Position numbers and translations under genes: made by a program
Notes under the pieces: generated by a model
The model's input: only the letters and a program-made list of their open reading frames with translations
The model's database searches: none
What the model was told of the DNA's origin: nothing
In this document: piece after piece, positions 38,352 to 60,321 of the stretch
Numbering within the stretch: position 1 is the first letter of the stretch
Layout: each line of letters starts with the position of its first letter
Source: a virus
Lineage: Duplodnaviria > Caudoviricetes
Strand: one strand, 5' to 3'
Virus record (IMG/VR): IMGVR_UViG_3300042934_000776
Coordinates: 1 to 63,160 of that record
Length of the DNA: 63,160 nt

Positions 38352-38368
38352 AATTCACCGGGTGAATC
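38352..38368. repeat. 17-bp palindrome, copy 1
   Basis: AATTCACCGGGTGAATC (1 mismatch to consensus). Confidence 0.9.
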
Positions 38369-38392
38369 GGTCCGGTCGCCACGGCAGAGAGT

Positions 38393-38423
38393 CACTTGCA
38401 TTACCGGGGCCATCCGGTAGTGT
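38393..38423 (+). promoter_or_regulatory. Early promoter P1
   Basis: CAC-TTGCAT-N16-TAGTGT; near-identical to 42047-42077. Confidence 0.7.
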
Positions 38424-38475
38424 TGTCTTTGTGGGCGAGCACTGCCCACAACCGAACCGGCGGCACCGGCACAGC

Positions 38476-38492
38476 GATTCACCCGGTGAATC
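38476..38492. repeat. 17-bp palindrome, copy 2
   Basis: GATTCACCCGGTGAATC, just upstream of an RBS. Confidence 0.95.
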
Positions 38493-38511
38493 GAGACAGG
38501 AACTGAGAACG

Positions 38512-39258
38512 ATGGACACGAAGAGCACAACCGAAGAGGTCACCCACCTCACTGCCGAACTGATCGGCAAGCTGGCCACGGCCTACGGCGACACCGATAA
38601 GGCGCTGACGGATCGGGCCCTGGCTGTGAATGCCGCCCTGGCCTACGGCGTCGACGTCAAGACGATGGCCGCCGATATGGCCGCCGCGAACCGTGCGAAC
38701 CCCGCCATTCCGGCCGTGGTTCCTGCGACTCTCGGCTACGCGCGGTTCGCCATCACCGTGGCGGAGGCCATCGGCACGGACCTCCGCGCGTGGATCTCGC
38801 GGGACCGTAAGGCGGTCGCCGACACGATCCGCGCGGGCAAGCGCGTGGGCCTCAAGGCGGCGGGGACGGCCGTCCGCGACGCGCTGAAGCCGATCGACAA
38901 GTCCAAGCACTTCGAGCGCGAAGAGATCGCGGTCACCGTGGTGACCGATCTCCTCTCGACGATCCTCCCGGAACCCGCCCCGGCGACGCCGCGTCAGAAG
39001 AAGAGCGACGGACCGGACGAGATCGACGGCGAGACCGGCGGCAAGAAGGAGACCGTCAGCGAGACCATGACGGCCGCCGCCGCGCTGGCCACCGTGCGAG
39101 CGCTCACGGCGTGGCTGACGACGGGTTCCGGCACCTGGTCGCCGGACCTCGAGTCCGCCCTGTCGGAGCTTCGGACCGCGGCCACGGCCAGCCGGAAGCG
39201 CGGCCAGGGCGAGACCGCCAAGCTCAAGGGGGCGCGCGTCGAGACTCCCGCCGCGTGA
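38512..39258 (+). CDS. Hypothetical protein, first gene of the early arm
   Basis: MDTKSTTEE; Ala/Lys/Thr-rich helical, strong GC3 bias. Confidence 0.75.
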   Translation: MDTKSTTEEVTHLTAELIGKLATAYGDTDKALTDRALAVNAALAYGVDVKTMAADMAAANRANPAIPAVVPATLGYARFAITVAEAIGTDLRAWISRDRKAVADTIRAGKRVGLKAAGTAVRDALKPIDKSKHFEREEIAVTVVTDLLSTILPEPAPATPRQKKSDGPDEIDGETGGKKETVSETMTAAAALATVRALTAWLTTGSGTWSPDLESALSELRTAATASRKRGQGETAKLKGARVETPAA

Positions 39259-39330
39259 CACGACCGGAGCGGCCGTCGGGTGAGGTGTCCCCGGCGGCCG
39301 CTCCCACGCCCGGCAGTAGCTGCGGCCCCC

Positions 39331-39347
39331 GATTCACCCGGTGAATC
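39331..39347. repeat. 17-bp palindrome, copy 3
   Basis: GATTCACCCGGTGAATC, intergenic. Confidence 0.95.
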
Positions 39348-39442
39348 GTGGGCGACAGGTGCCACCTGGCCCCGCATCGACAACACGTCGATATCTCAAC
39401 GAAGATGGCCGCACATGGTGCGACCGGGAAGGACAGGCCATC

Positions 39443-39673
39443 ATGGCCAGCATGCGGAAACTCCGGCGGAACGCGGAGCACGCGGCAGCCGCCTACCGGG
39501 CTGCAGCCGCCGACGTCATCACGGCGACACTCAACGAACGGACCGCCGGACGCGAACCGTCCGACAGCCCCGACGTGCAGCGACTCAGGCGCCGGTCCGG
39601 CGCGTACCACGCACAGTGGCTCGCCGCAGAGCGCCGCGTCGAAGAGAACCTGTCACGGGAGGTGGCATCGTGA
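39443..39673 (+). CDS. Hypothetical protein
   Basis: RBS GGAAGGA; GTGA overlap downstream. Confidence 0.6.
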   Translation: MASMRKLRRNAEHAAAAYRAAAADVITATLNERTAGREPSDSPDVQRLRRRSGAYHAQWLAAERRVEENLSREVAS

Positions 39674-39933
39674 GCGAGCGCCAGACCCGCGGCGACTGGA
39701 TCGCCGCCATCATCACCGCTGCACTCGTGTTCGCAGTGATGCTGTGGATGCTGCACCTGGCCACCGATCACCCTGCGCACCCGCCGGTCGAGATCATCAA
39801 CGAAGATGGCCTGGCACCGTGCCCCACCGAAGACTCGACCGACTGCTACTGGGATGCCGACACGATGGGCAACGGCCACGGCCGCGACGTCATCGACCTC
39901 GGCAGTGACGGGGTTGTGGAGGTGTCGCCGTGA
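39670..39933 (+). CDS. Membrane protein with PCxxEDSxxCYWDA...GNGxG motif
   Basis: One TM helix plus a motif recurrent in actinophages. Confidence 0.7.
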   Translation: MSERQTRGDWIAAIITAALVFAVMLWMLHLATDHPAHPPVEIINEDGLAPCPTEDSTDCYWDADTMGNGHGRDVIDLGSDGVVEVSP

Positions 39934-40316
39934 ACGCTGAGCAGATCCTCGACACCCTCGCCAGGCTGCAAGCCGACGTCATCCAGACCGGCTGGGAACG
40001 GGAACGGGAGCAGCGTCGCGCCGCCAGAATGGCAGCGATCACTGCCGCCGACCTGCACCCGTTGAAGGTGGCGCGTGACCTCAACGAAGCTGCGATCGCC
40101 GCCCGCGACAGGATGCTGGACGCGGTCCGGCATCACCGTCTCACGCAGGCTCACAACAGCCTGACGTGCCCCATCTGCGAGGGCCCGAAGTCCCCGAACC
40201 CGGCGGACTACACCTGCCCTGCCTGCCAGGCGCCAGCCGGCCAGCCGTGCACCCAACCGACCAACACGGGACGCCGGCCGGTGCGCTGGCATCACGCCAT
40301 GCGGGGTGCGCTGTGA
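39930..40316 (+). CDS. Zinc-finger protein
   Basis: CPICE and CPACQAPAGQPC...HHAMR. Confidence 0.65.
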   Translation: MNAEQILDTLARLQADVIQTGWEREREQRRAARMAAITAADLHPLKVARDLNEAAIAARDRMLDAVRHHRLTQAHNSLTCPICEGPKSPNPADYTCPACQAPAGQPCTQPTNTGRRPVRWHHAMRGAL

Positions 40317-40444
40317 ACCGCGGCCGCATCAACGCGCCAGCCCTGCTGGCCGCGGTCTGCCTCACCGTCGTCGTGCTCGCCATGGCGGCAGCCTGGGTGA
40401 CGCTCGTTGTCGCCGTCGTCCACTCTGTGAACGGCACCCCGTAA
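40313..40444 (+). CDS. Small membrane protein (43 aa)
   Basis: GTGA overlap; hydrophobic. Confidence 0.5.
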   Translation: MNRGRINAPALLAAVCLTVVVLAMAAAWVTLVVAVVHSVNGTP

Positions 40445-40499
40445 GTAACCAGATCCCCTGGCCCCTTCGGCGCACGCCTCCGGGGCTCTCAACAAACCT

Positions 40500-40516
40500 G
40501 ATTCACCCGGTGAATC
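40500..40516. repeat. 17-bp palindrome, copy 4
   Basis: GATTCACCCGGTGAATC upstream of an RBS. Confidence 0.95.
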
Positions 40517-40543
40517 GGACCACCACAACGAAGGAGAAACGAG

Positions 40544-40756
40544 ATGAGCGGACGCAAAGCGAAGCAGGCACGACGCCTCGAGAACGAGGGTCAGCCGTAC
40601 TTCAAGGAGATCAAGCGCCCCACCACGGCGTACGTCCCCCGCAAGGAGCAGCAGGAGCGCCGACGCCGCGAGCGTGCCTCCGCGAAGCGTGCCGCGGAGA
40701 CCAGCGCGAAGATGCTCTCCGCGTTCACCCGCGGCCGCGAGAAGGGCCTCAGCTGA
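40544..40756 (+). CDS. Small basic protein
   Basis: RBS GAAGGAG; Arg/Lys-rich. Confidence 0.7.
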   Translation: MSGRKAKQARRLENEGQPYFKEIKRPTTAYVPRKEQQERRRRERASAKRAAETSAKMLSAFTRGREKGLS

Positions 40757-40941
40757 TGGTCACCGTCTCGCCCGTCGCCGCGAAGGCGATCGTCGGCACC
40801 CGTTACCGCGTGCTCGACCTCAACGCCCGGCGCACCATCGCCCACGGCCTCACCCTGGGGCAGGCGCACGACCTCATCAAACAGGGCAAGGCTGCGAACC
40901 AGCAGGCCCGCTTCGACATCAGGACGGAGACCCGATCATGA
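40756..40941 (+). CDS. Hypothetical protein
   Basis: TGATG coupling. Confidence 0.6.
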   Translation: MVTVSPVAAKAIVGTRYRVLDLNARRTIAHGLTLGQAHDLIKQGKAANQQARFDIRTETRS

Positions 40942-41336
40942 GACAGCATCCCGGCAAGTACGCCGACATCGTCGACGAGTGGCTGCACCAGACCGCCATC
41001 AAGGAAGACGACGGGTTCGGCGACGTCGAAGCGCCCACCGGCTACGTGTTCAAGTTGGACGTCGACCCGGACGCGGAGGGCCACGAGTCCGCGTGGCTCG
41101 AGCGCAAGATCGCCGAGTGGTACGGCCCGTTCTTCCTGGTCATCGAAGACAGCCAGGGCACGATGCTGTTCCCGTACTACGCCACCGCCGAAGAGCGGGA
41201 CCAGGCGGCCCAGGAGCTCAGCGTGATCTACGACACCTGGGTCGACGCCGACGAGGACGAGGGCTGCGAGGGTCACGAGTCGCTCGCCGGCGCCCACATG
41301 GGCGAGTCGATCTACTGCGACGGGTCGTGCCGCTGA
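40938..41336 (+). CDS. Acidic hypothetical protein
   Basis: GDVEAPTG motif; C-terminal CEGHESL.G.HMGESIYCDGSC. Confidence 0.7.
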   Translation: MRQHPGKYADIVDEWLHQTAIKEDDGFGDVEAPTGYVFKLDVDPDAEGHESAWLERKIAEWYGPFFLVIEDSQGTMLFPYYATAEERDQAAQELSVIYDTWVDADEDEGCEGHESLAGAHMGESIYCDGSCR

Positions 41337-41740
41337 TGTTCACCTCACGCAAGCAGATCCGCCACGCGCTCGAGGCGTACATCTCGCAGGTCGAGCGCAC
41401 CGGTCAGTCAACGAACCTGGAGCAGCAGCTGTTCGCCGCCCTGCAGGGACTCGTCGCCGACCTGAAGGACCGGATCGGCGACCTGCCGTCCGGCGATTCA
41501 CCGAGTGAATCGGCAGCAGTCCATCCGGTGGCCGACGCAGCGCGCTGCACGCAGGCCGGCTACCACCTGGGCGGCTCACGCCACGTCCGCGCCGTCTGCC
41601 CGACGGTCACCGCCACCATCCCCTCGACAGGGGGCGTGACCCTCGGCGAACTCGCCGAGGACATGAGCGATTGGCGCCGAGTGGGCGTAACCCGCGGCGC
41701 CGTCGAGTACGTCATCAACCAGGTGTGGTGGGAGCAGTGA
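41336..41740 (+). CDS. Hypothetical protein (contains palindrome copy 5 at 41495-41511)
   Basis: Coupled ORF; GATTCACCGAGTGAATC encodes DSPSES. Confidence 0.65.
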   Translation: MFTSRKQIRHALEAYISQVERTGQSTNLEQQLFAALQGLVADLKDRIGDLPSGDSPSESAAVHPVADAARCTQAGYHLGGSRHVRAVCPTVTATIPSTGGVTLGELAEDMSDWRRVGVTRGAVEYVINQVWWEQ

Positions 41741-42045
41741 GCCTCGAGCGCGTGGTCCTCGGTCTGCTCGAGGCGGTCGAGAAGTCCAACGAACAGGTCG
41801 GTCACTATACCGACGTCGACCTGCTCTGCGCCTGCGGCCGCGAGGCAGACCTCGCGGGTGACGAACAGGATGCGACTCGGGTCTGGGACCTGGTCGAGCA
41901 CGCCCTCTTCGATCACACCACGGCTCACGACATCCTGCTCGAACGGCGGATGCGGCTGATCTCATCCAACGAGATGCGCCTGGTCGCCGGCTATGAACCA
42001 GCAACCGAGGCGGAGCAGAAGTGGCGGGAGCGGCAGTCCCTGTAG
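41737..42045 (+). CDS. Hypothetical protein
   Basis: GTGA overlap; RBS GGGAG. Confidence 0.6.
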   Translation: MSLERVVLGLLEAVEKSNEQVGHYTDVDLLCACGREADLAGDEQDATRVWDLVEHALFDHTTAHDILLERRMRLISSNEMRLVAGYEPATEAEQKWRERQSL

Positions 42046-42046
42046 C

Positions 42047-42077
42047 CACTTGCATTACCGGGGATATCCGGTAAGCT
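42047..42077 (+). promoter_or_regulatory. Early promoter P2
   Basis: CAC-TTGCAT-N16-TAAGCT. Confidence 0.7.
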
Positions 42078-42118
42078 AGACGAAGTCGGGCGGGTCGAGA
42101 AACGCCTGATCAACGAGC

Positions 42119-42135
42119 GATTCACCGAGTGAATC
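42119..42135. repeat. 17-bp palindrome, copy 6
   Basis: GATTCACCGAGTGAATC abutting an RBS. Confidence 0.95.
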
Positions 42136-42151
42136 GGGAAGGAGAACGGTC

Positions 42152-43717
42152 ATGGGCAGCAACTACCACGACCACGACGCCATCGCCATGCGGTGGGTCG
42201 ACCGGGCCTACCACGGCCAGCAGTTCGCCAACGCCCGCAAGGGCGCCAACCTGCACGACGAAGGCGACTCGATCTACAGCTACGGCCACCACTTCGAGGT
42301 CGCCCGCATCCTGCGGGACCACAAGCGCCGCCCCGTCGGGTGGCTGCTCAACGGCAACACGTACAGCAACACCACGAACAAGCACCAGTTCGCGGTGCGC
42401 AACGCCATCGCCCGCAACGGGCGCGGCCTGCCGAGCGTGACCATCCCGCACGACGCGCTCGCCGCCGCTGGCATCGAGCTCGAGTCGGTGCAGATCGTCA
42501 ACGTCCAGCCGGACTGGTGGACCGAGCGTGAAGAGCGCCGCTTCAGCCGACCCGAATCCTGGGTCACCCGCGAGACGCGCACCGAGATCGGCGGCTGGCA
42601 GAACACCCTGACCGGCGAGTACCGCAGCCGCGTCACCTACTGGGGACCGGATGCCGTCAGTCAGCCGAAGGTCGAGTGCGACCACGTGCTGCCCGACCCG
42701 CCGGGACCATGGAAGCCAGGCTTCAACTGGTATCGCGACGCCGCGGCCGACCATGCCCGGGAGATCCACGAGCGCGCGCGCCACGGCGTGTGGGAGGAGG
42801 TGCCGTCGATCACTCGCAGCACCGGACGGGTGCGCATCTTCTCGTCCTCGAACGTCGAGTGGGACATCGAGGACGACCCGGAGTCGCCGATCGGCGTGGC
42901 CTACACACGCATCGTGCGGCGCCACTGGCTCGGTGCGTCGCTGATCAAGGCGGCCACGATTCACCAGGTGAATCGGAAGCACGACGCCTGCAACGGCACC
43001 GGCGTGGGCGAGGAGCGCTGGGTCTACAACGGCATGAGCGGCGAGGGTCCGCTCACCGAGGACGAGATGGCCCGCCACCTGCGCCACGAGCAGTTCGTCA
43101 TGGAGCGCAACGGCGGCATCCGCCAGCCGGTGCAGCACCACGTCGAGACGTACAGGCGTGAGGACTTCTGCTTCGGATGCAGCGGTCGCGGCACGATCCG
43201 GGTGCCCCGGCGCCGGTGGGCGTACTACCTCAGCGGGTTCGATCTCAACGAGACCCGGCCGAGCTACTTCTTCTGCGAGCTCCCGCCGAAGAGCGCCCCG
43301 ACCACGGTGGCGGAGGCGTACGAGGCGTTGAAGCCGGCATCCGTCAAGCTGGCGGAGGCGATGGGCCGCGAGGTGAAGCGTCAGGGTGACATCTTCGCCA
43401 TCCCGGTGCCGTCGGTCGACACGGCGCAGCTGAAGCGCGACGGCGAGTACCGCCGGTACGCATCCGAGATGGTCACCGAGACCATCTGGAACCGACGAGG
43501 TCGACCGCGCGAGGTGCGCATGCGTCGGTCCGAGCACCTGGCGCACGTCCTGGACACCAACCACGAGTGCACCGAGGTCGTCACCATCAACGGACAGACG
43601 TACGGTCGGGGCACCATGGTGCACTCGCCCGGCGACCGCCTGCCCGACCACAAGCGCCTGCAGCTGGGGAAGACCTGGCACCTGTTGGTGAAGAACACCG
43701 TCCCGATTGGAGCCTGA
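42152..43717 (+). CDS. Large early protein of unknown function (contains palindrome copy 7 at 42958-42974)
   Basis: Strong RBS; YSYGHHF...YSNTTNKHQ N-terminal module; RQGDIF...H...H C-terminal module. Confidence 0.85.
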   Translation: MGSNYHDHDAIAMRWVDRAYHGQQFANARKGANLHDEGDSIYSYGHHFEVARILRDHKRRPVGWLLNGNTYSNTTNKHQFAVRNAIARNGRGLPSVTIPHDALAAAGIELESVQIVNVQPDWWTEREERRFSRPESWVTRETRTEIGGWQNTLTGEYRSRVTYWGPDAVSQPKVECDHVLPDPPGPWKPGFNWYRDAAADHAREIHERARHGVWEEVPSITRSTGRVRIFSSSNVEWDIEDDPESPIGVAYTRIVRRHWLGASLIKAATIHQVNRKHDACNGTGVGEERWVYNGMSGEGPLTEDEMARHLRHEQFVMERNGGIRQPVQHHVETYRREDFCFGCSGRGTIRVPRRRWAYYLSGFDLNETRPSYFFCELPPKSAPTTVAEAYEALKPASVKLAEAMGREVKRQGDIFAIPVPSVDTAQLKRDGEYRRYASEMVTETIWNRRGRPREVRMRRSEHLAHVLDTNHECTEVVTINGQTYGRGTMVHSPGDRLPDHKRLQLGKTWHLLVKNTVPIGA

Positions 43718-43718
43718 C

Positions 43719-44060
43719 ATGCCCCTCTTTCACGATGCCCACCCGAATGCCGAGCACCCGGACCGGCCCGACCACGAGGACTTCCGGCTGCTCGCTGAAC
43801 TCATGCAGGATCTCGACCGGCAGGCCGAGTTCGGGGTGCCGGTCGAGGAGCTCGTGCCCGCCGACCAGAATTCGGTGATCTACGCGGCGGACCAACGGCT
43901 GCTGCGCGCGCTCGGCCCGGGTTGGCTGACTCTGACTCGGGCGATGAAGATGACCCTGCTCGCCGTGTACCTGGACGCCTTCACCCTGGGGACGTCCTTC
44001 GCCAACCGTCGGCATGCCGACAACGAGACCGGCACTGCCGGAGAAGGGAGCTCATCGTGA
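43719..44060 (+). CDS. Hypothetical protein
   Basis: PDRPDHEDF..L motif. Confidence 0.65.
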   Translation: MPLFHDAHPNAEHPDRPDHEDFRLLAELMQDLDRQAEFGVPVEELVPADQNSVIYAADQRLLRALGPGWLTLTRAMKMTLLAVYLDAFTLGTSFANRRHADNETGTAGEGSSS

Positions 44061-44227
44061 GCACCACCACCCTCGAGCGCGCCGAGGTCACCGCACCTCC
44101 CGTCGCGCTCACCAAAGCGCAGGAGGATGCCCTGATCGGGCTCGCTGCGTCCACCGAGAAGCCTGCGCGCGTGCGCAGCCTGCGCCATGAGGTGCGGGCC
44201 TGGTCTCTCGGCGGCAACGTGGACTGA
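44057..44227 (+). CDS. Hypothetical protein
   Basis: GTGA overlap; RBS. Confidence 0.5.
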   Translation: MSTTTLERAEVTAPPVALTKAQEDALIGLAASTEKPARVRSLRHEVRAWSLGGNVD

Positions 44228-44289
44228 TGTCCGCGGGCCGCTGCCGGCATCTTCCCCCGCTGCCGGCGGCGGTTCGGGTATCTCAGCCC

Positions 44290-44306
44290 GATTCACCAGG
44301 TGAATC
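44290..44306. repeat. 17-bp palindrome, copy 8
   Basis: GATTCACCAGGTGAATC, intergenic. Confidence 0.95.
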
Positions 44307-44349
44307 TCAACGCATATGGCATGCCCGGCATGCCTGGAAAGGAATGGAC

Positions 44350-44628
44350 ATGCCTGAGCGCAACAAGCAGGGCTACCTGCGCGCCGAGCAGCTGCGCGCC
44401 GGTGAGATCGAGCAGTACGCCGTCGCCCGCGGCATCCGCTACGTCGAGATCAGCCTCGGCTGGACGCCCACGTCGCTCGATGACGACCAGCAGGGGTACT
44501 TCTGGGTGCACCTCGTGATCCGCAAGGGCACCCGCTACGGCCGCCTGGTCGAGGATCGCACCCTGACGTACGACGACATCGACGAGGCGCGCGAGCGCTT
44601 CCGCAATCTGATGAAAGCCCACCCGTGA
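44350..44628 (+). CDS. Hypothetical protein
   Basis: RBS GAAAGGA. Confidence 0.65.
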   Translation: MPERNKQGYLRAEQLRAGEIEQYAVARGIRYVEISLGWTPTSLDDDQQGYFWVHLVIRKGTRYGRLVEDRTLTYDDIDEARERFRNLMKAHP

Positions 44629-44643
44629 TTCACCTGGTGAATC
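44627..44643. repeat. 17-bp palindrome, copy 9
   Basis: GATTCACCTGGTGAATC between a stop codon and the next RBS. Confidence 0.95.
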
Positions 44644-44659
44644 GAGAAAGGACACGACC

Positions 44660-45373
44660 ATGAGCGAGATCATCGAACTGACCGAGACGGCGCGACTGCT
44701 CGTCGAGCAGGATGCCGACGCGGAGAACCCCCGCAAGGACTGGGACATGGCGACCGGCTTCGTGAAGATCGGCGACCGCGGAGACTCACGCCTGGCGCGG
44801 GTGCCCGCCGTGCACCGCTTCGACAGGCTGAGCGAGGCGTACTACCGCCTGCTCGACACCGCGGGCATCTACTTCACCGACGTCCTGTTCCGCGCGTACG
44901 TCCGTGCCGAAGCGCAGACAGCGCGTTGGGCCAGGATCTTCTACGGCCTGCACGTCGAGTACGACCACGAGCACGGCGGCTTCTGGTTCGTCGCCCCCGA
45001 GCAGATCAAGGTCAACAACGAGCACGGTGGTGACTGGTCCTCGCTCGAGAAGCAGGCCGAGGTGATCGCCTCCGAGCAGAAGACGTACCGCCAGTGGGCG
45101 GAGGGTGAGGTGTACACCGTCGTCCTCGAGCGCGTCGCTACGTTCGAGAAGGTCACGCATCATTCAGACGGGACGCTCGAGCAGGTCGCCGGCAGTGAGT
45201 GGGAGGTGGTCGAGTCGATCGGGGGCTGCTACCTCGACGACGACTACACCGCGCAGGTGGTGGCCAGCGAATACTTCAACCTCACGACCGAGGAGACCGA
45301 GGCACTCGGCCTGCCCGAGCGGGTGCGGCCGGAGATCCCGGTCATCGAGGCGACCGTGAGCGGAGAGTACTGA
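44660..45373 (+). CDS. Conserved acidic early phage protein
   Basis: D..ENPRKDWD...Y.QWAEGEVY...ESIGGCY motifs. Confidence 0.75.
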   Translation: MSEIIELTETARLLVEQDADAENPRKDWDMATGFVKIGDRGDSRLARVPAVHRFDRLSEAYYRLLDTAGIYFTDVLFRAYVRAEAQTARWARIFYGLHVEYDHEHGGFWFVAPEQIKVNNEHGGDWSSLEKQAEVIASEQKTYRQWAEGEVYTVVLERVATFEKVTHHSDGTLEQVAGSEWEVVESIGGCYLDDDYTAQVVASEYFNLTTEETEALGLPERVRPEIPVIEATVSGEY

Positions 45374-45639
45374 TGGCCACCTTCCTGAACATCGGCTACA
45401 ACGTCCGCAACTGGGCCATCTTCAAGATCGCAGACGGCGTCACAACCGAGCAGATCCAGGCCCTGCGCGACGCCATCGACAGCGACGAGAACGACGACGC
45501 GCTGGAACTGGCGAGCAAACTCGAGGCGGAGGGACTCCTCGAGTTCGACAGCAACGAGCGCGACACCAACCCGGGCTACTGGGGCAACACCGAGACCGGC
45601 ATCTGCACCAACATCATCGACGTCTACGAGGAGGACTGA
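45373..45639 (+). CDS. Acidic hypothetical protein
   Basis: TGATG coupling. Confidence 0.65.
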   Translation: MATFLNIGYNVRNWAIFKIADGVTTEQIQALRDAIDSDENDDALELASKLEAEGLLEFDSNERDTNPGYWGNTETGICTNIIDVYEED

Positions 45640-45641
45640 CC

Positions 45642-45992
45642 GTGCCCCCCGACATCGAGAGCTCTGTCAATCTCGGCATCCACCACGTGCTGAGCAAGCT
45701 GCGCCGACAGCGCCGCACGCACGGCTACGGCACCGTTGACCCGAAGCTGCACGACCGGCTGCTGCAGGAGGAGCTCGACCTCGGGAACATCACCGGCGAC
45801 ACGCTGCGGGAGATGGTGACCGAGGCCGTCAAGGATGCGACGGGCGACATCCTCCGATGGGAGACCGACCAGGCGGAGCGCGTCCTCGAGTCGGTCGACC
45901 AGATCAACCGCAGCAAGATCGACAGCTTCGTGCTGCACACGTTCATCCAGCGCGAGCGACGCGCTCTCGAAGAGAAGAGGGACCAACTGTGA
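45642..45992 (+). CDS. Hypothetical protein
   Basis: RBS GAGGAG; GTG start. Confidence 0.65.
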   Translation: MPPDIESSVNLGIHHVLSKLRRQRRTHGYGTVDPKLHDRLLQEELDLGNITGDTLREMVTEAVKDATGDILRWETDQAERVLESVDQINRSKIDSFVLHTFIQRERRALEEKRDQL

Positions 45993-46384
45993 CCACGTAC
46001 ATCACCTTCGGGTACGACCACGCCAACATCCACCCGGCCATCGGCACCGACCTGCACCAAGGCTTCCTGGCGATCGACCTCGGCGACGACCTGCACGAGT
46101 CGGTCGCACGCGACGTGGCCGTCGCCATCATCGGCGAGCAGTGGGCCTTCAGCTACCCGACACCCCCCGGCGCGGACCGACCCGACCGCCCCGACTGGTA
46201 TCGCAAGGGCGAGATCGCTCGTGTCGTGCTGATCAACGAGGGGCGACGCCAGGACATCGTCCGCCAGATCGCACACACCCACGAGATGCACAACAGCGGA
46301 TCGAGCGACGACGAACTCGAGTCGCTGCAGACCGCACGAGACATGCTCGCCGAGCTTATCGGCTACACCCACGAGGAGGACTGA
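45989..46384 (+). CDS. Hypothetical protein
   Basis: YITFG.DH...WAFSY motif. Confidence 0.65.
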   Translation: MTTYITFGYDHANIHPAIGTDLHQGFLAIDLGDDLHESVARDVAVAIIGEQWAFSYPTPPGADRPDRPDWYRKGEIARVVLINEGRRQDIVRQIAHTHEMHNSGSSDDELESLQTARDMLAELIGYTHEED

Positions 46385-46385
46385 C

Positions 46386-46832
46386 ATGACCCTGAAACTG
46401 ACCATCGAACGCGAGGTCCAGCCGAGCGAGGTGGCAAGCCTAGTGTTCGGCACCGGCGCCCTCACCTGGGGCTGGTGGGGCCACGTCTCGCTGCGCCGAC
46501 CGACCTACGAAGAGCCCCCCGAGGGCGGCAAGCGCATCGCCGACTACGAGATCATCACGGATCCGCTCGAGGTGCCCCTCTTTGAGGACGACCGATTCTT
46601 CATCACGGTCGACGACCCGCAGGAGGCCGAAGGCAGCGGCAAGGTGCTGCGCAAGACGCTGTCGATGGCGTCGATCGTGCACGCCGCCGGCCGCGCCATC
46701 CGTGGCGACGGTGCCCACATCGACGACGAGTCGAGCCGTGACATGGCCCGCGAGGATCTCGGCTATGCCGACGCGATCGCCGGGGATGCCGTGCTGCAGC
46801 TGGCCGTGTTCGGGAGCGTCGTCTATGGCTGA
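46386..46832 (+). CDS. Conserved hypothetical protein
   Basis: DA..GDAVLQLAVFGSVVYG C-terminal motif. Confidence 0.75.
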   Translation: MTLKLTIEREVQPSEVASLVFGTGALTWGWWGHVSLRRPTYEEPPEGGKRIADYEIITDPLEVPLFEDDRFFITVDDPQEAEGSGKVLRKTLSMASIVHAAGRAIRGDGAHIDDESSRDMAREDLGYADAIAGDAVLQLAVFGSVVYG

Positions 46833-47193
46833 GCGGGATGTCGAGACGCGCGTCCAGGCTGCGACCGAGTGGGCACTCGACACCTACGGGGTGAAGCCCT
46901 TCAGCATCGTCGGTGGCCAGCGGCTCACCAACATCGTGCAGTCAGCAGTGCGTCACGCCCTGTCCGATTCACCAGGTGAATTGCAGTACCACGATGGCGA
47001 TTGGGCATTCGACATCGACGAGGAGTCCGGCGAGGAGGCGGTGTGGATCGACCTGCAGCTGTTCGACCCGGACGACCCGGACCCCAGCGTGCGGCATGTC
47101 AATGCCGTGCTCACACTGTCAGACGTGGAACTCCGCGGCCTCGTCGAGGCTGGGCAGGAGATCCTCGCGGAATCAAGGAGGCGGTTCGCATGA
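46825..47193 (+). CDS. Hypothetical protein (contains palindrome copy 10 at 46966-46982)
   Basis: GATTCACCAGGTGAATT encodes DSPGEL. Confidence 0.65.
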   Translation: MAERDVETRVQAATEWALDTYGVKPFSIVGGQRLTNIVQSAVRHALSDSPGELQYHDGDWAFDIDEESGEEAVWIDLQLFDPDDPDPSVRHVNAVLTLSDVELRGLVEAGQEILAESRRRFA

Positions 47194-47561
47194 CCGACAG
47201 CAAGATCGAGATCTTCATCAACACGTTACTCGGCAACAACGCCATCGTCACTGCGTACGCCCGCACCGAGGCGGAGCTCGACGGTGACGGCCAGTTCGTG
47301 CACGTCCTGATCGGCGACACCGTCATGACGCGCGTACTCGACGAGTGGGTGCTGCACGGCAACCGCTCGTGGACTCAACTCGGTGAGGAAGATCAGAGCC
47401 ACATCGCTCTGGCATGGACAGACCCCGAGGGGAACGTCCGGGTGGTCACACTGCGGGTCGACGACACCACCTGGCTGTGGCCACTCGACCGACTGGTCGC
47501 GATCCTCCCGTACAACGACCTGTCGTTCGAGCGCCTCGACCGCCCCTCGCCCGAGGGGTAG
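47190..47561 (+). CDS. Hypothetical protein
   Basis: RBS AAGGAGG. Confidence 0.65.
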   Translation: MTDSKIEIFINTLLGNNAIVTAYARTEAELDGDGQFVHVLIGDTVMTRVLDEWVLHGNRSWTQLGEEDQSHIALAWTDPEGNVRVVTLRVDDTTWLWPLDRLVAILPYNDLSFERLDRPSPEG

Positions 47562-47585
47562 GGTTACCGGGCGGAAGGAGTAACT

Positions 47586-47843
47586 GTGAGCGACCCCTTG
47601 CTCGGGGATCTCGAGTCCATCGAAGTCGAGATCCCCGAGGCGGACGAGATCGACGACTCGCTCGCCATCGACGCTGACGACTACATGCAGGAGCCGCCCG
47701 AGTTCGGGGACTTCGACGTGTGGTGCGAGACCACCAACGACTGGGTCACCGTCTGGCGACCCGGAACCGACGGCCCCTGGTTCTGTCGCAACTGCGGCAA
47801 GACCGACCATCCATTCAGAGACCACGAAGGAGCAGGAGCATGA
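47586..47843 (+). CDS. Acidic protein with C-terminal Zn ribbon
   Basis: RBS GGAAGGAG; WC...WFCRNCG. Confidence 0.65.
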   Translation: MSDPLLGDLESIEVEIPEADEIDDSLAIDADDYMQEPPEFGDFDVWCETTNDWVTVWRPGTDGPWFCRNCGKTDHPFRDHEGAGA

Positions 47844-48154
47844 CCCACACGAGCCTGCGTCTGCGGCATGCAGACGCCCCCCTCCAGAACCACATCATCG
47901 AGCGGATCAGCGAGCTCCTCATGTCCCGCGACGACGAGGTGCCGCCGGACGGCTACGACCGCGTCGACTACCGCCTCGAGATCGTGTTCGCGGCGTACGA
48001 CAACGAGCCGGACGACCCGGGCCAGCCGGTCGCCGACCTGCTCACCGACCTGATCCACCTGTGCAACCAGAAGAACTGGGATCTCTACGCCCTGCTCGAG
48101 CGCGCCGACAAGATGGCGGGGCGGGAGTGGGACGAGTGGGGTGGCGAGCGATGA
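47840..48154 (+). CDS. Hypothetical protein
   Basis: VADLLTDLIHLC motif. Confidence 0.7.
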   Translation: MTHTSLRLRHADAPLQNHIIERISELLMSRDDEVPPDGYDRVDYRLEIVFAAYDNEPDDPGQPVADLLTDLIHLCNQKNWDLYALLERADKMAGREWDEWGGER

Positions 48155-49218: not shown

Positions 49219-49586
49219 CCCTCGACCCTTCCGGCGTGCGCACTCGCCTGCCGGTCAGCGAGTGGCCGGAGAAGCACGGCCCGCACCTGCGCGGCACCTG
49301 GTACGCCCGGCGTCTGAAGCGTGGCGAGTACACTCGGCGGCCGCACTACTTCGTGTGGCCCGAGTCGCGCTCGCTGTGCGAGAAGTCGACGCGCCGCCCC
49401 GACGACCTGGTGCTCAACCCCGACACCGGCCGGACGATGGAGGTCGACCCGCTGATCAAGGACTTCCAGACACGCACGCTGTGCGGTATCTGCCTGATGC
49501 TGCTCGAGCCAGGCCCAACCACCGCTGACATCGTGAACGCATACGTCCCGGTGTGGGTGTTGCGCGATTCACCGGGTGAATCGTGA
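49215..49586 (+). CDS. Zn-binding hypothetical protein (ends in palindrome copy 11 at 49566-49582)
   Basis: PHYF...SLC...CGIC; C-terminus DSPGES. Confidence 0.6.
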   Translation: MTLDPSGVRTRLPVSEWPEKHGPHLRGTWYARRLKRGEYTRRPHYFVWPESRSLCEKSTRRPDDLVLNPDTGRTMEVDPLIKDFQTRTLCGICLMLLEPGPTTADIVNAYVPVWVLRDSPGES

Positions 49587-50129: not shown

Positions 50130-50138
50130 GCAGGAGAA

Positions 50139-50169
50139 GGGCCCCGCACGTGTCGAGGATGCGGGGCCC
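50139..50169 (+). terminator. Hairpin after the RHH gene
   Basis: GGGCCCCGCA-N11-TGCGGGGCCC. Confidence 0.5.
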
Positions 50170-50263
50170 AATGCCTGTCCCGAGTTGGAAGGAGAACTGG
50201 CGGTGCCAGAGTATCACCGCCTCGGCCTCGACACCCGACACCGAACCACCCCGAAGGAGAACC

Positions 50264-54129: not shown

Positions 54130-54266
54130 ACGACGACGAACTGCCCGAAGACCTGGGAACCCCGGCGCCTGACCGCTGGTGGCTGCGGCCGATGTTCCTG
54201 ATCGCCACCGCCTGCACACTCGGCTGCGCCGGTGTGCTGGTCCACGGGATCGGGGCGATCTCATGA
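54126..54266 (+). CDS. Small membrane protein
   Basis: GTGA overlap; one TM helix. Confidence 0.5.
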   Translation: MNDDELPEDLGTPAPDRWWLRPMFLIATACTLGCAGVLVHGIGAIS

Positions 54267-54592
54267 GGGTCTACACGCTGCGCGAGGCAGCCGTCGAGCT
54301 CGACCGGATCATCGACGAGCGGACCGACTTCGACAGCGAACGCTGGCTGCCGGGCCTGGCTGGCATCGAGATGACGATGAGCCTGGTGGAGATCGTCGAG
54401 GCCGAGCCGCCGGCGCCGACACGCGAGTACCGGCAGGGCGGCCGCCAGGTCGGGAAGACGGCGGAGATGGCAAGGCTGATCGCGGCCATGACCGGGCTGC
54501 ATTTCGAGACGGTGATGGACCTGCTCGCCGCGGGCTGGTCGTACACCGAGGAGGAGGGGAAGGCACCGAGATGGACACGCGACTCACACTGA
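54263..54592 (+). CDS. Hypothetical protein
   Basis: ATGA overlap. Confidence 0.6.
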   Translation: MRVYTLREAAVELDRIIDERTDFDSERWLPGLAGIEMTMSLVEIVEAEPPAPTREYRQGGRQVGKTAEMARLIAAMTGLHFETVMDLLAAGWSYTEEEGKAPRWTRDSH

Positions 54593-56462: not shown

Positions 56463-56653
56463 CCATCGAGGAGTTGATCGAGTTCCTGGAGAGGCGCCTG
56501 AAGGCGGGCAAGATCCACGGTCTCGGCTCGGTGAAGATCCGCGACTTCCGCGTCTCTGACGAGGCGATGGAAGCAGGGTCGAGTGGCTACGCCGACCTCG
56601 AAGAGGTGCTGGTCGTCGGCGACGACGTCTACCTCCTGCCGTCGGAGGACTGA
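56459..56653 (+). CDS. Hypothetical protein
   Basis: Coupled at both ends. Confidence 0.6.
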   Translation: MTIEELIEFLERRLKAGKIHGLGSVKIRDFRVSDEAMEAGSSGYADLEEVLVVGDDVYLLPSED

Positions 56654-57219
56654 TGGACTCCCCGATCGCCATGGGGATCGACGTCAGCCTGACCCGTACG
56701 GCCGTCGCCTTCGTCGGAACCAACGACGAAGGCGACGGCCCGGTGGTCGACACCTACTCGATGGGTCGCAGAGGGTCTCGCGACGAGTCCCTGATGCAGC
56801 GCCGCGAGCGGATCACCACCCTGCGCGAGCTGGTGATCCGCACGCTCACCGAGAACATGGAGCGGCCGCGTGTCGCCATGATCGAGGACGTCCCGTTCGG
56901 CACGCCCGGTGGCTCCACCACGGACCGGGCCGCCCTCTGGTGGTTCATCGTCGAGGGCCTCCACCAGGAGGGCATCCCGACCGTGGCGGTGAACGTCTCG
57001 AAGCTGAAGATCTACGCCACAGGCAGGGGCAACAAGCACGAGAAGGACGAGGTCACCGTCGCCCTGATCCGCCGCTATGTCGACGCGCCGATCCAGAACA
57101 ACGACGAGGCCGACGCCACGGGGCTCGCCATGATGGGCGCTCGCCTGCTGGGTGAGCCGTACGAGAAGTCACTGCCGCAGACGCACCTGCGGGCGATGGA
57201 AGGACTGGCGCTGCCGTGA
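56653..57219 (+). CDS. RuvC-like Holliday junction resolvase
   Basis: MGIDVSL..T, MIE, LKIYATGRG...K, NNDEADA. Confidence 0.9.
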   Translation: MDSPIAMGIDVSLTRTAVAFVGTNDEGDGPVVDTYSMGRRGSRDESLMQRRERITTLRELVIRTLTENMERPRVAMIEDVPFGTPGGSTTDRAALWWFIVEGLHQEGIPTVAVNVSKLKIYATGRGNKHEKDEVTVALIRRYVDAPIQNNDEADATGLAMMGARLLGEPYEKSLPQTHLRAMEGLALP

Positions 57220-57752
57220 TCCTGACGCCTGAGCTCGAGCAGCAGATCATCGCGATCATCGAGATGCACCCTCGAGAATCGCTGGTGCTGCCCGACTGGG
57301 CGTATGGCACGGATGGGCGGGTGGTGGTGCTGGTCGACGGGATCCCGATCGACCTGCACCGCCACCTGCACAACAAGCTGATCCGCCCACTCGGTTACCA
57401 CGAGAGGATGTGGCAGCGCGGCGAGAACGGCAACGTCAACCCGCACCTGTTCGACGTCGTCGCCGGCACGAAGTCGGCGCGCACCGAATGCGCCAAGGGT
57501 CACGCCTACGAGGGGAACGAGGCCCCTCCGAACAGCCGTGGCTACCGATGTCTGACCTGCTACCGAGACTCGTATCGGAAGCCGGGCGTGATCCCGAACG
57601 GCGAGAAGACGCGCTGCCCCCAGGATCACGAGTACACCCCGGAGAACACCTACATCGGCCGTGACGGGAAGCGTCGCTGCCTGACCTGCAAGAGAGACCG
57701 CAACCGCCGCTACATGCGGCGGCGGCGGTCACCCCGGAAGGAGAACCCATGA
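57216..57752 (+). CDS. Degenerate HNH-like protein with two CxxxHxY...RCxxC Zn modules
   Basis: HR...NVNP HNH remnant; CAKGHAY...RCLTC and CPQDHEY...RCLTC. Confidence 0.7.
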   Translation: MILTPELEQQIIAIIEMHPRESLVLPDWAYGTDGRVVVLVDGIPIDLHRHLHNKLIRPLGYHERMWQRGENGNVNPHLFDVVAGTKSARTECAKGHAYEGNEAPPNSRGYRCLTCYRDSYRKPGVIPNGEKTRCPQDHEYTPENTYIGRDGKRRCLTCKRDRNRRYMRRRRSPRKENP

Positions 57753-58849
57753 ACGACCAGACCCCCTGGATCCGCCAGCCGCGCCAGCCCGCACCTCACA
57801 TCAAGTACGCCCACTCGCTCGGCCGCGGCATGCTCACGTTCGAGCAGATCACCGAGCTCGTGAAGGCGATCAACCAGCTGTACGTCGCCCAGAAGAACAA
57901 GATGTCGTACCTGTCCCAGCACCAGGCGCGCGCCGAGATGAACCGCATCTTCGGCTACGGAAACTGGGACTCGAAGGTCGCCTCGATGCGCTGCGACTAT
58001 GAGGAGCGCATCGGTGACAACACCGACCCTCGCTGGCCGAAGGACTTCCGCACGAAGCAGCCGAAGGTCTCCGGCTCTGGCGCCTACTGGGTCGTCGGCT
58101 ACGAGGGCTCTGTCCATGTGGCGATCCGCGACCTGTGGGGGATGCCGGTCGCCGAGTACCTCGAGTTCCACTTCGAGGAGTCGGCGCCGCAGCCCAACCG
58201 TGGCGAGGCCCGCGCCCTCGCGCTCACCTCGGTCGAGTCGTACGCACTGCGCCGGTCGCTGATCAACCTCGGCGACCGCTTCGGGCTCGGTCTCTACAAC
58301 GGCGGATCGGTCGCCCCGCATGGGCAGTACACGATCCAGCTGGAGCCGGGCATCCTGTTCGACTGGAAGCCTGTCGACGCTCAGGGTCAGCAGCCGGCCA
58401 CAGCCCCTGTGCCCCGGCAGCCCTCCCACGAGACGATCGCCGCGGAGCCCGCCGTGCCCGAGGGCTGGGCGGAGCAGGCTGCGGTGGGCGCACTCGAGGC
58501 CCCGGAGCCGACACCCGGCACGGCGGATGCCGCGGTCGCGCAGATGGGCCTGCAGTCGCCGCCGGTGACGCGGCCGCCGGTGGCGCAGCGGTTCCCGCAG
58601 GCCCGCGAGCAGGTTCAGCAGATGAACCAGGAGGCGCGCGCACAGGCCGGGGGTGGCTACCCGGCCCCGCCGCAGCAGCAGGGTGGGCCTGCACCGAGCA
58701 TCGCCCCCGGCGCGACTGACGCGCTGCGCGCCCGGATGCAGGGCGCCTTCAAGGTGGATGCGGAGGACGAGCGCGAGCGGTATGAGCGCGAGAACGACTA
58801 CGCGAATGAGCAGGCGATGCAGCAGCACCGTGGGGGCGTGGTCGAGTAA
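57749..58849 (+). CDS. Rad52/Sak-like single-strand annealing protein
   Basis: SYL...MNRIFGYGNWD...ALRR...LGDRFGLGLY. Confidence 0.85.
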   Translation: MNDQTPWIRQPRQPAPHIKYAHSLGRGMLTFEQITELVKAINQLYVAQKNKMSYLSQHQARAEMNRIFGYGNWDSKVASMRCDYEERIGDNTDPRWPKDFRTKQPKVSGSGAYWVVGYEGSVHVAIRDLWGMPVAEYLEFHFEESAPQPNRGEARALALTSVESYALRRSLINLGDRFGLGLYNGGSVAPHGQYTIQLEPGILFDWKPVDAQGQQPATAPVPRQPSHETIAAEPAVPEGWAEQAAVGALEAPEPTPGTADAAVAQMGLQSPPVTRPPVAQRFPQAREQVQQMNQEARAQAGGGYPAPPQQQGGPAPSIAPGATDALRARMQGAFKVDAEDERERYERENDYANEQAMQQHRGGVVE

Positions 58850-60321
58850 TGGCCGAGCTCATCCGGGACAAGGCGCTCGAGGACGCCCTGCTCGCCGCGG
58901 TGATCGCCGACCAGAACGAGCGGCCGCGGACCAAGCAGATGCTCATCGGCCCGTCGGAGATCGGCGGATGCCGCGAGCTCGTGCGCGCGAAGATTTTCGA
59001 GGACCGCTCCACCTTCCTGCCCGACACGCACTGGCACACCGCCGCGCACGTCGGCACGGTGATGGGCGAGGATCTCGAGCGGATCTTCGGCGAGCGTCTC
59101 GGTGCGGCCACGCAGCAGCGCGTCACCATCGAGCTCGAGCGGCTCGGCCTCAGCGTGTCCGGCGCGATCGACCTGATCTTCATCCGCAACCAGGTCGTCT
59201 GCGACCTGAAGGGCACCGGCGCGTTCGGGTCTGTGCAGTACGAGGGCGGCGTGAAGCTCGACTACTACATCCAGATCTCGCTCTACGTGTGGGGCCTGGT
59301 CAAGGCTGGCATCCTGCAGCCTGGTGCCGAGGGTCGGATCGTCTACTACGACCGGGTCGGTGGCGAGCAGACGTTCATCGCCGTCGTGGTCACCTGGGAA
59401 GCGATCCTCAACTACGTCGACCTGGCGCAGCGCCGCCTGCAGGAGGTGCTGAACGCACAGGCCGGGATCGAGGCGGGCCAGCTGAGCATGGCCCACCACC
59501 TCCGCGACCACGTGCCGTCGTTCTGCTTCTCCGAGAAGGTGCAGTGCCCGCGCCGCATGCACTGCTGGGGCGGGTCTGACTGGGCGCCTCTCCAGGTGCA
59601 CGACGACGCCGACCTGCAGCGCGCGACCGTCGAGTACATCGCCGGTCGCAAGCTGGAGAACCGCGGCAAGGCGATGAAGGAGCAGGCGCGTGGCCTGCTC
59701 AAGGGCGTCGAGGGTCACGTCGTCAACGGCGAGGAGATGGGCGGCCTGGTCGGCTGGAAGAGCGGCCGCATCTCCGTGGTGGAGATCGAGGCACTGCCTG
59801 CCGTGCAGGATCTGGTGGACGAGGTCTCGACCGAGTGGGCGAGGGGCGAGACGCGCGAGCCGTTCAAGCCCTCGGACCTGGCCGACCCGGCAAAGGTCGC
59901 GGAGCTCAATGCGCGCGGCGTGGTGAACGTCGCCGACGAGTACCCGCCCGACCCGGAGGCAGAGCAGATCTTCATCGAGGAGGTCACCGGTACTCACATC
60001 AGTTCGATGTCGATCGTCCCGAAGGGCGAGGGCACCGGCTGGATCGAGCCAGTAGAGGCCGATTCACCCGGTGAATCACCCCCGGACGACATGCCGTTCC
60101 AGGGTGGCGGGCTGGTCACTGCGGACGAAGTCCAGGCGTGGCCGACGCCGCCCGAGCAGGTGCTCGAGCAGCACGGCCAGGATCTGACGGCCGATCAGGT
60201 CGCGTACCTCGAGCGCAAGGCGGAGGAGGCGCGACAAGCGCCGACGACCAGCGCCGAGCGTCTCTCGCAGCTGCAGAAGGACGTCGCCGCTGATCGGAAG
60301 CGTCGTGCCGGCAAGGCGTGA
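58849..60321 (+). CDS. Cas4-like PD-(D/E)XK exonuclease (contains palindrome copy 12 at 60061-60077)
   Basis: GPSEIGGC, GAID...DLK, Q...Y, C-terminal C...CP...C. Confidence 0.85.
   Translation: MAELIRDKALEDALLAAVIADQNERPRTKQMLIGPSEIGGCRELVRAKIFEDRSTFLPDTHWHTAAHVGTVMGEDLERIFGERLGAATQQRVTIELERLGLSVSGAIDLIFIRNQVVCDLKGTGAFGSVQYEGGVKLDYYIQISLYVWGLVKAGILQPGAEGRIVYYDRVGGEQTFIAVVVTWEAILNYVDLAQRRLQEVLNAQAGIEAGQLSMAHHLRDHVPSFCFSEKVQCPRRMHCWGGSDWAPLQVHDDADLQRATVEYIAGRKLENRGKAMKEQARGLLKGVEGHVVNGEEMGGLVGWKSGRISVVEIEALPAVQDLVDEVSTEWARGETREPFKPSDLADPAKVAELNARGVVNVADEYPPDPEAEQIFIEEVTGTHISSMSIVPKGEGTGWIEPVEADSPGESPPDDMPFQGGGLVTADEVQAWPTPPEQVLEQHGQDLTADQVAYLERKAEEARQAPTTSAERLSQLQKDVAADRKRRAGKA

Follow-up and report, generated by a model that had tools for sequence, protein, structure and literature searches.

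An array of short palindromes along the early arm of an uncultured phage genome

Introduction

For a decade, short palindromes dispersed through the genome have been on record in several clusters of actinophages, with no mechanism. In this study, we analysed an array of twelve such palindromes in the IMG/VR virus record IMGVR_UViG_3300042934_000776, which we call the window; it comprises the whole record (63,160 bp, 67% G+C, rated 100% complete). In Cluster A, the stoperators are asymmetric, orientation-dependent sites that are bound by the monomeric immunity repressor of these temperate phages, and elongation is halted where the protein is bound. For Cluster EG, the passages of Jacobs-Sera et al. 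(2020, PMC7302621) on the repeats describe 8-10 copies of an 18-bp inverted repeat, GATCAACCNNGGTTGATC, located at the right genome end, where they precede start codons by 14-22 bp; the repeat was likened there to the 17-bp repeats of Cluster O, and its function was given as unknown. The same repeat is treated in the 2022 paper on phage OneinaGillian, where the section concerned again states that the function is unknown (PMC9224216). One OneinaGillian site is noted as not being associated with a start codon. For Cluster O mycobacteriophages, the part of Cresawn et al. (2015, PMC4351075) that deals with the repeats reports more than 30 genome-wide copies of TGTTCGGNNNCCGAACA, 17 bp in length and not closely linked to start codons; binding by a dimeric protein was predicted, the repeats were contrasted with the stoperators, and the function was stated to be unknown.

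An initial annotation of the window likened the layout of the array to the Cluster O repeats. We found that the nearest described system is instead the Cluster EG repeat, whose phages are syntenic with the window. As in Cluster EG, the array is made of a short inverted repeat with near-invariant arms, its copy number (12, with two arm mismatches) falls in the range of 8-12, and it occupies the non-structural arm beside a genome end, with a homologous module of G-rich box (G-box), site and promoter, the ends of the window itself being placed by homology. The half-site is the same at six of eight positions. In contrast, two arm positions differ and the centre has one base, not two; palindrome scans of the window returned only the window's own motif, GATTCACCNGGTGAATC. 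When the EG motif was recounted, 12 copies each at up to two mismatches were obtained in Kelcole and OneinaGillian; RubyRalph and SadLad have 11 each. Most of the 8-12 copies of the EG phages occupy short gaps and precede a start codon by 14-30 bp, and only one of 12 is intragenic in Kelcole by our gene calls (up to three by the GenBank annotation), whereas five of 12 are intragenic in the window. The window also differs from Kelcole and OneinaGillian, and resembles RubyRalph and SadLad, in having a second copy between the promoter and the first gene.

The likeness to Cluster O, as far as the repeat section of that report goes (PMC4351075), extends to an invariant short inverted repeat with about one third of the copies in genes, a higher density toward one end and no integrase; the phages, the host and the sequence are unrelated, and the window has 12 copies on one arm only. 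The Cluster A stoperators, too, are a short site repeated many times along operons in small intergenic spaces, but the site of the window is symmetric and neither an integrase nor a repressor was found there. From its sequence, the array appears to belong to a documented but unexplained class of repeats, within which its sequence and spacing seem to be new. Among the matches listed in a literature search with the motif strings, there were only primers and papers on other subjects; a second search had no Microbacterium phage transcriptome among the matches listed.

Results

Twelve palindromes in the early arm

The array was found by a pattern scan of the whole window, with 100 dinucleotide shuffles as the control. 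Scanning with GATTCACNNNGTGAATC at no or one mismatch recovered all twelve copies at the positions initially given, ten of them exact and two with one arm mismatch each (A at position 1 of copy 38352 and T at position 17 of copy 46966); the shuffles gave an expectation of 0.00 exact and 0.09 one-mismatch copies. A sharper scan with GATTCACCNGGTGAATC at up to three mismatches detected no copy in the window at two or three mismatches, and the total stayed at 12. Within the window, the 7-mers GATTCAC (11/11) and GTGAATC (11/11) are confined to the palindromes. The centres vary as had been noted (CCG four times, CAG three times, CGG and CGA twice each, CTG once). The 7-3-7 layout proposed at first is instead 8-1-8, or 9-1-9 when the flanks are counted: since 10 of 12 copies have the centre C-N-G (CGA in 41495 and 42119), with C at -1 in 10 of 12 and G at +1 in 10 of 12, the unit is cGATTCACC-N-GGTGAATCg, with an arm of 8-9 bp on each side of one base.

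The copies are restricted to the early, plus-strand arm (37313-63160, continuing at 53-3507). As the initial annotation had stated, none lies within the minus-strand arm (3556-37271), which is syntenic with the Kelcole genes annotated terminase through lysin A, and nine are clustered near the control region within 6.29 kb. Under uniform placement, P was ~2e-5 for nine copies within 6.29 kb and ~1e-4 for all 12 in the plus arm. Successive spacings were 124, 855, 1169, 995, 624, 839, 1332 and 337 bp, followed by 2.3, 2.6 and 10.5 kb. On our own gene map, which was made with an ad hoc codon-usage caller prepared for this analysis, the earlier division into seven intergenic copies and five within coding sequences was retained. 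With respect to the next start codon, four of the 12 copies lie 16-27 nt upstream, one adjoins the start, one each lies at 37-43, 95 and 143 nt, and four are deep inside genes. The array is non-random and confined to the early arm, in line with what had been held from the letters of the window, and it is real and under strong selection. The copies are as follows (palindromes, no strand assigned).

38352..38368: copy 1 (AATTCACCGGGTGAATC), intergenic, upstream of promoter P2; centre ~36 bp ahead of the -35 hexamer
38476..38492: copy 2, intergenic, 19 nt ahead of ATG 38512, within the first early gene's 5' leader
39331..39347: copy 3, intergenic, 72 nt past stop 39258 and 95 nt ahead of ATG 39443
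40500..40516: copy 4, intergenic, 27 nt ahead of ATG 40544
41495..41511: copy 5, within gene 41327-41740 (peptide DSPSE); centre CGA
42119..42135: copy 6, intergenic, 16 nt ahead of ATG 42152 of the 521-aa gene; centre CGA
42958..42974: copy 7, within the 521-aa gene (IHQVN)
44290..44306: copy 8, intergenic, 37-43 nt ahead of ATG 44344/44350
44627..44643: copy 9, intergenic, overlapping stop TGA 44626-44628, 16 nt ahead of ATG 44660
46966..46982: copy 10 (last base T), within gene 46825-47193 (DSPGEL); orthologous codons in G001
49566..49582: copy 11, last six codons (DSPGES-stop) of gene 49215-49586, adjoining GTG 49583
60061..60077: copy 12, within PD-(D/E)XK exonuclease gene 58849-60321 (DSPGES), in a variable linker

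Conservation and turnover of the sites

The window was compared with G001 (an uncultured phage of 63,791 bp), Kelcole, OneinaGillian (G004), RubyRalph, SadLad and the wider relatives G005-G008. RubyRalph and SadLad infect another Microbacterium species than Kelcole and OneinaGillian. The window phage is an uncultured, lytic soil phage related to the Cluster EG (Gillianvirus) phages of Microbacterium. Fifty of 99 open reading frames (ORFs) of the window match Kelcole by tblastn in the same order, at 27-75% amino acid identity; nucleotide matches cover only 3-7% of the queries, and the Gillianvirus placement is one of protein-level synteny. No tyrosine or serine integrase (PF00589 or PF00239) was matched in the window or G001 and no repressor was found, which agrees with the earlier statement that no integrase/repressor cassette is visible. 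Searches for tRNA genes and Rfam families found none.

The blocks in which G001 can be aligned with the window have 65-83% nucleotide identity (a ~70%-identical relative), and G001 carries 15 copies of the window motif. All 12 window copies have a counterpart in G001, in the same order and gene context. In nine positionally matched pairs, 140 of 144 specified bases were identical, compared with 32-56% in the ungapped flanks. The counterpart of copy 2 lies 17 nt before the start codon in G001 and 18 nt before it in RubyRalph and SadLad, and that of copy 3 is at G001 41459, 18 nt from its start. Upstream of the 521-aa homologue, an own-motif copy was present at 15-41 nt in six of the seven other called genomes, the seventh (G006) having it at 123 nt; the motif is ~20 nt upstream in RubyRalph by GenBank coordinates. 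These alignments suggest that the sites are under purifying selection.

Copies in the structural arm, which the initial annotation had named as a finding that would refute its view, are absent from the window; G001 has three extra copies outside its early arm, two in minus-arm genes and one at a hairpin tip between the arms. This long hairpin stands at the convergent arm junction in both genomes (window 3517-3550, G001 2755-2789) with a homologous outer stem; its tip is the 17-mer motif in G001 (copy 2764) and an unrelated sequence in the window.

Of the five intragenic copies, two (46966 and 49566) are at orthologous codons in G001, and three (41495, 42958 and 60061) are at other codons of the same ortholog: copy 5 is found ~70 codons further along in another frame, and copy 12 is found 45 codons earlier. 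The arrangement of copy 11 is also present in G001, and the Kelcole ortholog has no DSPGES tail. The 521-aa gene has a single own-motif copy in each of the window, G001 and Kelcole, at three different codons and frames of a gap-free alignment, and the OneinaGillian homologue has a one-mismatch copy at the relative position of that in Kelcole. These sites in the 521-aa gene were made by substitution at the cost of amino acid changes, and therefore selection acts on the nucleic acid; the shifts of codon and frame between orthologs bear out the earlier view that the peptide is not what is selected. A copy inside the 521-aa homologue is not a strict rule, because RubyRalph has none inside its 1.46-kb homologue.

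A promoter module bracketed by palindromes

The first two copies bracket an early promoter, P2, in a module with the following parts.

38335..38349, plus strand: G-box (GAGGGTGGGGGGCCC), just upstream of copy 1
38396..38423, plus strand: early promoter P2, TTGCAT, 16-nt spacer, TAGTGT; a conserved block in G001
38512..39258, plus strand: first early gene, 248 aa without a known domain; the bracketed promoter's target and ortholog of Kelcole gene 106

Kelcole gene 106 is the last gene at the Kelcole genome's right end. In Kelcole, OneinaGillian, RubyRalph and SadLad, a homologous promoter (TTGACA-16-TAATGT/TAGTGT) lies 87-127 nt from the physical right end. Read on the reverse complement, the right ends of these four phages consist of the end, the G-box, the motif at 53-57 nt from the end, and the promoter with a similar spacer palindrome. 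The G-box precedes the promoter-proximal copy in these four and in G001. By homology to these phages, the physical end of the window would be near 38295 and P2 within ~130 bp of it. The full module (G-box, site, promoter, site, ribosome-binding site (RBS) and first gene) is present in the window, G001, RubyRalph and SadLad, each with its own motif; the second copy is 18 nt before the first ATG in RubyRalph and SadLad, and Kelcole and OneinaGillian have the upstream copy only. In these last two phages, one copy lies within the terminal repeat.

The centres of the bracketing copies are at about -70/+54 from the inferred transcription start in the window and at -61/+54 in G001. As it is placed before the transcription start, the promoter-upstream copy is not in the P2 transcript, and it is kept in six phages (window, G001, RubyRalph, SadLad, Kelcole and OneinaGillian). 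The P2 spacer (38402-38417) is itself an inverted repeat, TACCGG-N6-CCGGTA, which is conserved in G001, takes variant forms in Kelcole, OneinaGillian, RubyRalph and SadLad, and was flagged as a stem-loop in the terminator scan. This repeat may be a second operator.

The initial annotation had named two promoters. P2 is supported by its conservation in G001 and the EG-type phages, but P1 (TTGCAT at 38281) was rejected, as it has no -10 hexamer and is not conserved. A strict sigma-70 scan of 36500-50500 and a looser one (at least 9/12 matches) called no promoter, P2 included. In four public DNA runs, copies 1 and 2 and P2 were free of differences among 40 of 485 listed (~30 nt at contig ends excluded), a weak observation; one contig of run X2 has 15 substitutions beside copies 1-2 and P2, and copy 1 is not assessable in that contig. 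No RNA run was listed as containing window 38000-47999.

Other palindrome types in the wider family

Wider relatives (G005-G008) were found through the 521-aa protein, and they carry four other palindrome types. G006 has 25 copies of GGAAAGTA-N-TACTTTCC at up to two mismatches. G008 has 25 copies of GAAAGTC-N-GACTTTC and eight of GAAAGTC-NN-GACTTTC. G005 has four copies of TGTCGGAATTCCGACA and 4-6 of TGTAAAGC-NNN-GCTTTACA, and G007 has eight of AGAGGGCCCTCT. Most of these copies are in the early arm, and many precede a start codon by 11-45 nt. The EG motif is shared by phages of both M. foliorum and M. paraoxydans. From these sequences, the motif appears to follow the phage lineage and not the host. 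A trait that is common to the group but lineage-specific in sequence suggests that a cognate factor evolves together with the phage.

In G008, the eight copies with a two-base centre are packed in 2.6 kb (12438-15006) with few called genes, and the one-base form is spread over the early arm; the packed region may be an origin or control hub. An unrelated phage, G003 (44,716 bp, 46% G+C, with terminal repeats), has nine copies of a 25-bp palindrome, gttaGATTCACA-N-TGTGAATCtaac, with the same 7-mer arms as the window, placed genome-wide every ~2-6 kb. G003 and the window group share no protein except one 25-residue match (E=8e-4), and it therefore gives no lead.

Discussion

A proposed operator array for a phage-encoded protein

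What was observed comprises the palindromes with their symmetry, how they are conserved and turned over, the promoter module and a motif that switches between lineages. From these we infer protein binding, action on DNA, a repressing or roadblock effect and a phage-encoded binder, and we give an even chance to the reading that the array is a set of operators for a co-evolving, symmetric DNA-binding protein of the phage that controls the early operon. This binder would be encoded by the phage, recognise a specific sequence and be symmetric, probably as a dimer, its own evolution having kept step with that of its sites. Two copies would serve at P2, which they bracket, and the others would be met at intervals of 0.3-1.3 kb over the early operon's first 6.3 kb, beyond which they thin. 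Once the binder has accumulated, occupied sites would shut P2 and, along the operon, would block or slow the host RNA polymerase. The outcome would be a symmetric, lytic-phage counterpart of the stoperators that times the switch from early to later expression.

Several findings favour this reading. The inner C/G is complementary in 10 of 12 copies although it is unable to pair in a hairpin with a one-base loop, and the copies are all-or-none (12 at up to one mismatch, zero at 2-3). As isolated RNA, the copies fold at -5.7 to -8.1 kcal/mol, which is weak. The conservation of the sites in G001, the shifting intragenic copies, the end module and the lineage-tracking motif are further points for it. 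A symmetric binder, as the initial annotation had suggested with its dimeric protein, is the most economical reading, but the predicted binder was not found.

That failure, in searches with Pfam on 60 window and 10 G001 proteins and with PHROGs on 10, is the first of the points that weigh on the other side. Pfam and PHROGs returned only two helix-turn-helix (HTH) proteins, a weak NikA-like ribbon-helix-helix (RHH) protein and a weak zinc finger. The two HTH proteins are genes 37313 (HTH_17) and 37548 (winged HTH), orthologs of Kelcole genes annotated 10 and 9; they are the sole clear DNA-binding domains near the control region and are absent from G001. They had been proposed as binders and do have DNA-binding domains, but they are poor candidates because G001 has no homologues and yet keeps the identical motif at all 12 places. 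The small RHH protein (34091-34249) and a 212-aa HTH protein (33241-33879) were rejected since, by alignment, their DNA-reading parts do not track the motif type. The PF24623 zinc finger (39930-40316) was rejected as a universal binder, since G005, G008 and, from 44 kb to the end, RubyRalph and SadLad lack it. The sites themselves add to this. In intergenic gaps longer than 90 nt, counted in the window, G001 and Kelcole (window/G001 pairs not being independent), nine of 10 copies occupy the half of the gap nearer the start codon, at a distance of 15-43 nt from it that does not depend on gap length; only 39331, at 95 nt from ATG 39443, departs from this. Such placement fits a role in RNA or translation at least as well as an operator. 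The centres show a strand bias in Kelcole, where seven of seven non-palindromic centres have one orientation, and in the early arm of G006 (C 16, G 3, A 1); no such bias is seen in RubyRalph, SadLad, G008 or the window. In addition, the 17-mers in host chromosomes occur only as tips of longer hairpins, and the upstream copy is found at different distances from the -35 hexamer (36, 27, 20.5 and ~37.5 bp), so that the helical phase is not kept.

Among the other binders proposed initially, the products of 38512, 49583 and 49848 have no recognisable domain, and at 54571 our map has gene 54263-54592, which has no Pfam match. The full-length form of the 39930-40316 protein has one real homologue. 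Its C-terminal zinc finger and the Cys2-His2-like domain of 41737-42045 are in separate genes in the window and G001, and they are fused in a 144-aa protein in Kelcole (gene 98) and OneinaGillian.

Non-structural families present in all eight called genomes are only three: the 521-aa protein (by its C-terminal domain), SSB and the PD-(D/E)XK exonuclease. The 102-aa Cys2-His2-like protein (41737), a primase/helicase and a RecA-like protein are present in seven of eight. The 521-aa protein (42152-43717), also detected by tblastn in RubyRalph and SadLad, has 330 homologues, all unnamed. It resembles DUF8033 models in its N-terminal part, and the 170 aa at the C-terminus also occur as a stand-alone phage protein. 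The family has ~40 invariant residues, many of them H, D, E or R, which in the alignment look enzyme-like. An AlphaFold2 model (pLDDT 86.9) gave no PDB fold match at E<=0.001, with only uncharacterised or DUF8033 viral models and unnamed Atlas clusters being returned, and a PDB sequence search gave only chance-level SH3 matches. The 102-aa protein, also present in RubyRalph and SadLad, was modelled at pLDDT 80.4 from six sequences and had no significant PDB fold match. Either protein is a candidate reader in a bolder proposal, which we regard as doubtful: that strictly lytic EG-like actinophages run programmable symmetric stoperators, with an array from ~55 bp of the end that brackets the early promoter and continues along the early operon, a fast co-evolving reader without a recognised DNA-binding fold and a specificity re-set at least five times.

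Alternative explanations

RNase III sites between T7 early genes and translational operators are functional precedents for an element that acts as RNA. Here it would be a short hairpin 5' of the RBS in the early transcript, read by an RNA-binding protein or a nuclease, that controls translation, processing or stability. We consider this a serious rival, possible although we would not expect it to be correct. The start-proximal placement described above, the EG copies reported 14-22 bp upstream of start codons in the passages on those repeats (PMC7302621), the position of all window copies in the transcribed arm and the centre strand bias of Kelcole and G006 speak for it, as do the long hairpins with covarying stems after stop codons that the 17-mer tips in host chromosomes and at G001 2764. 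However, the promoter-upstream copy conserved in six phages precedes the P2 start, the stem is weak (-5.7 to -8.1 kcal/mol), and the inner C/G complementarity has no hairpin rationale. The four one-sided arm variants of the window and G001 are uncompensated, three giving mismatches in plus-strand RNA and one a G-U pair; the two-sided copy in the direct terminal repeat of Kelcole and OneinaGillian (A...T) keeps both pairing and symmetry. Intragenic copies 207-744 nt from any start are maintained, and no Rfam family was matched. As for termination, none of the 12 copies has a T-run on the transcribed strand, and an intrinsic terminator scan flagged only the minus-strand reading of 40500. Hairpin promoters of the N4 type, which go with a very large virion RNA polymerase gene, were rejected: the largest ORF is 918 aa and syntenic with the Kelcole tape measure gene. 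No polymerase domain was matched by Pfam in 60 proteins of the plus arm and control region.

The phage might also copy a sequence bound by a Microbacterium protein, as recruitment sites or a decoy, and the exact 17-mer does occur in six of 151 Microbacterium genomes (seven copies; five copies in five of 150 when the genome chosen for it is left out). The EG 18-mer is found in three of 151, and 0 of 151 contain either of the two reversed controls, a palindrome of the same composition, or the reverse of that palindrome. We think a host factor unlikely, since the copies number 0-2 per genome and 145 of 151 genomes have none, which is too sparse for a conserved host regulon to be visible; moreover, the motif type switches between related phages, phages of two host species share one type, and a collection-wide scan gave single, taxonomically scattered matches (80 of at least 120 loci). 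Most of 12 folded host copies of the window and EG motifs (loci L271-L281 among them) tip longer, G+C-rich, terminator-like hairpins with outer stems that differ by locus. Several are directly after stop codons, and the flanking Pfam matches are ordinary (a class II aminoacyl-tRNA synthetase, alcohol dehydrogenases and transporters). These hairpin tips lean toward the RNA explanation. A structural array by the end, with sites for loading or anchoring in DNA entry, end protection, replication start or parS-like segregation, would account for a density that is highest by the inferred physical end and decays inward (with a similar gradient in G001 and Kelcole), for the copy in the terminal repeat of EG phages and for copies inside long genes that fill gaps. 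It is improbable in our view: the start-proximal bias is left unaccounted for, the copy-free 1.46-kb homologue of RubyRalph shows no strict spacing rule, and the ends of the window's own genome are placed by homology. For the parS-like loading array proposed initially, a phage ParB is lacking: ParB_N (PF02195) was not matched in any of five genomes searched (window, G001, OneinaGillian, G005 and G006), with controls matched in 11 of 14 genomes. We consider it very unlikely that the palindromes are selfish or neutral and serve no phage function, having arisen by mobile insertion, by gene conversion between copies or through a restriction-type site bias. Some copies are at new places in relatives, the G001 junction copy takes the place of the tip in a terminator hairpin that has a homologous outer stem in the window, and the DSPGES tail of gene 49215 is an extension that is absent in Kelcole; against this, the copies in the 521-aa gene arose without indels, 12 of 12 sites are kept in order across the 70%-identical pair, and the array is restricted to one arm. 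A mobile palindrome of the REP/MITE type was likewise rejected on the gap-free alignment of the 521-aa copies, but the tail of 49215 is an extension.

The window and its relatives form a natural specificity-swap series, with one backbone, one end module and at least five palindromes. It follows that the binder and its recognition code should be findable by covariation and testable in cultured EG phages on M. foliorum, a host used in teaching laboratories. If it is true that the sites meter the early operon in lytic phages, they would offer compact, orthogonal operator/regulator pairs. If they act as RNA, they would represent a new kind of cistron-level control in high-G+C phages.

Additional observations

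Two clean single-gene differences were seen in public DNA runs: a near-identical relative in X2 is without exactly gene 40938-41336 (window 40930-41332), and a near-identical relative in X3 is without exactly gene 45373-45639 (window 45375-45640). A YpsA/SLOG-family protein (window 34795-35295, minus strand; Pfam E=7.8e-8) is encoded between the control region and the terminase. At 37908-38059, the window has four copies of a second repeat, GAGGCCCGAT(G/C)ATCGG, with the core CCGAT-N-ATCGG. These repeats are directly downstream of the HTH genes 37313 and 37548 and are possibly the operators of those regulators themselves. A close relative in run X3 has a different palindrome (at 38019) in their place.

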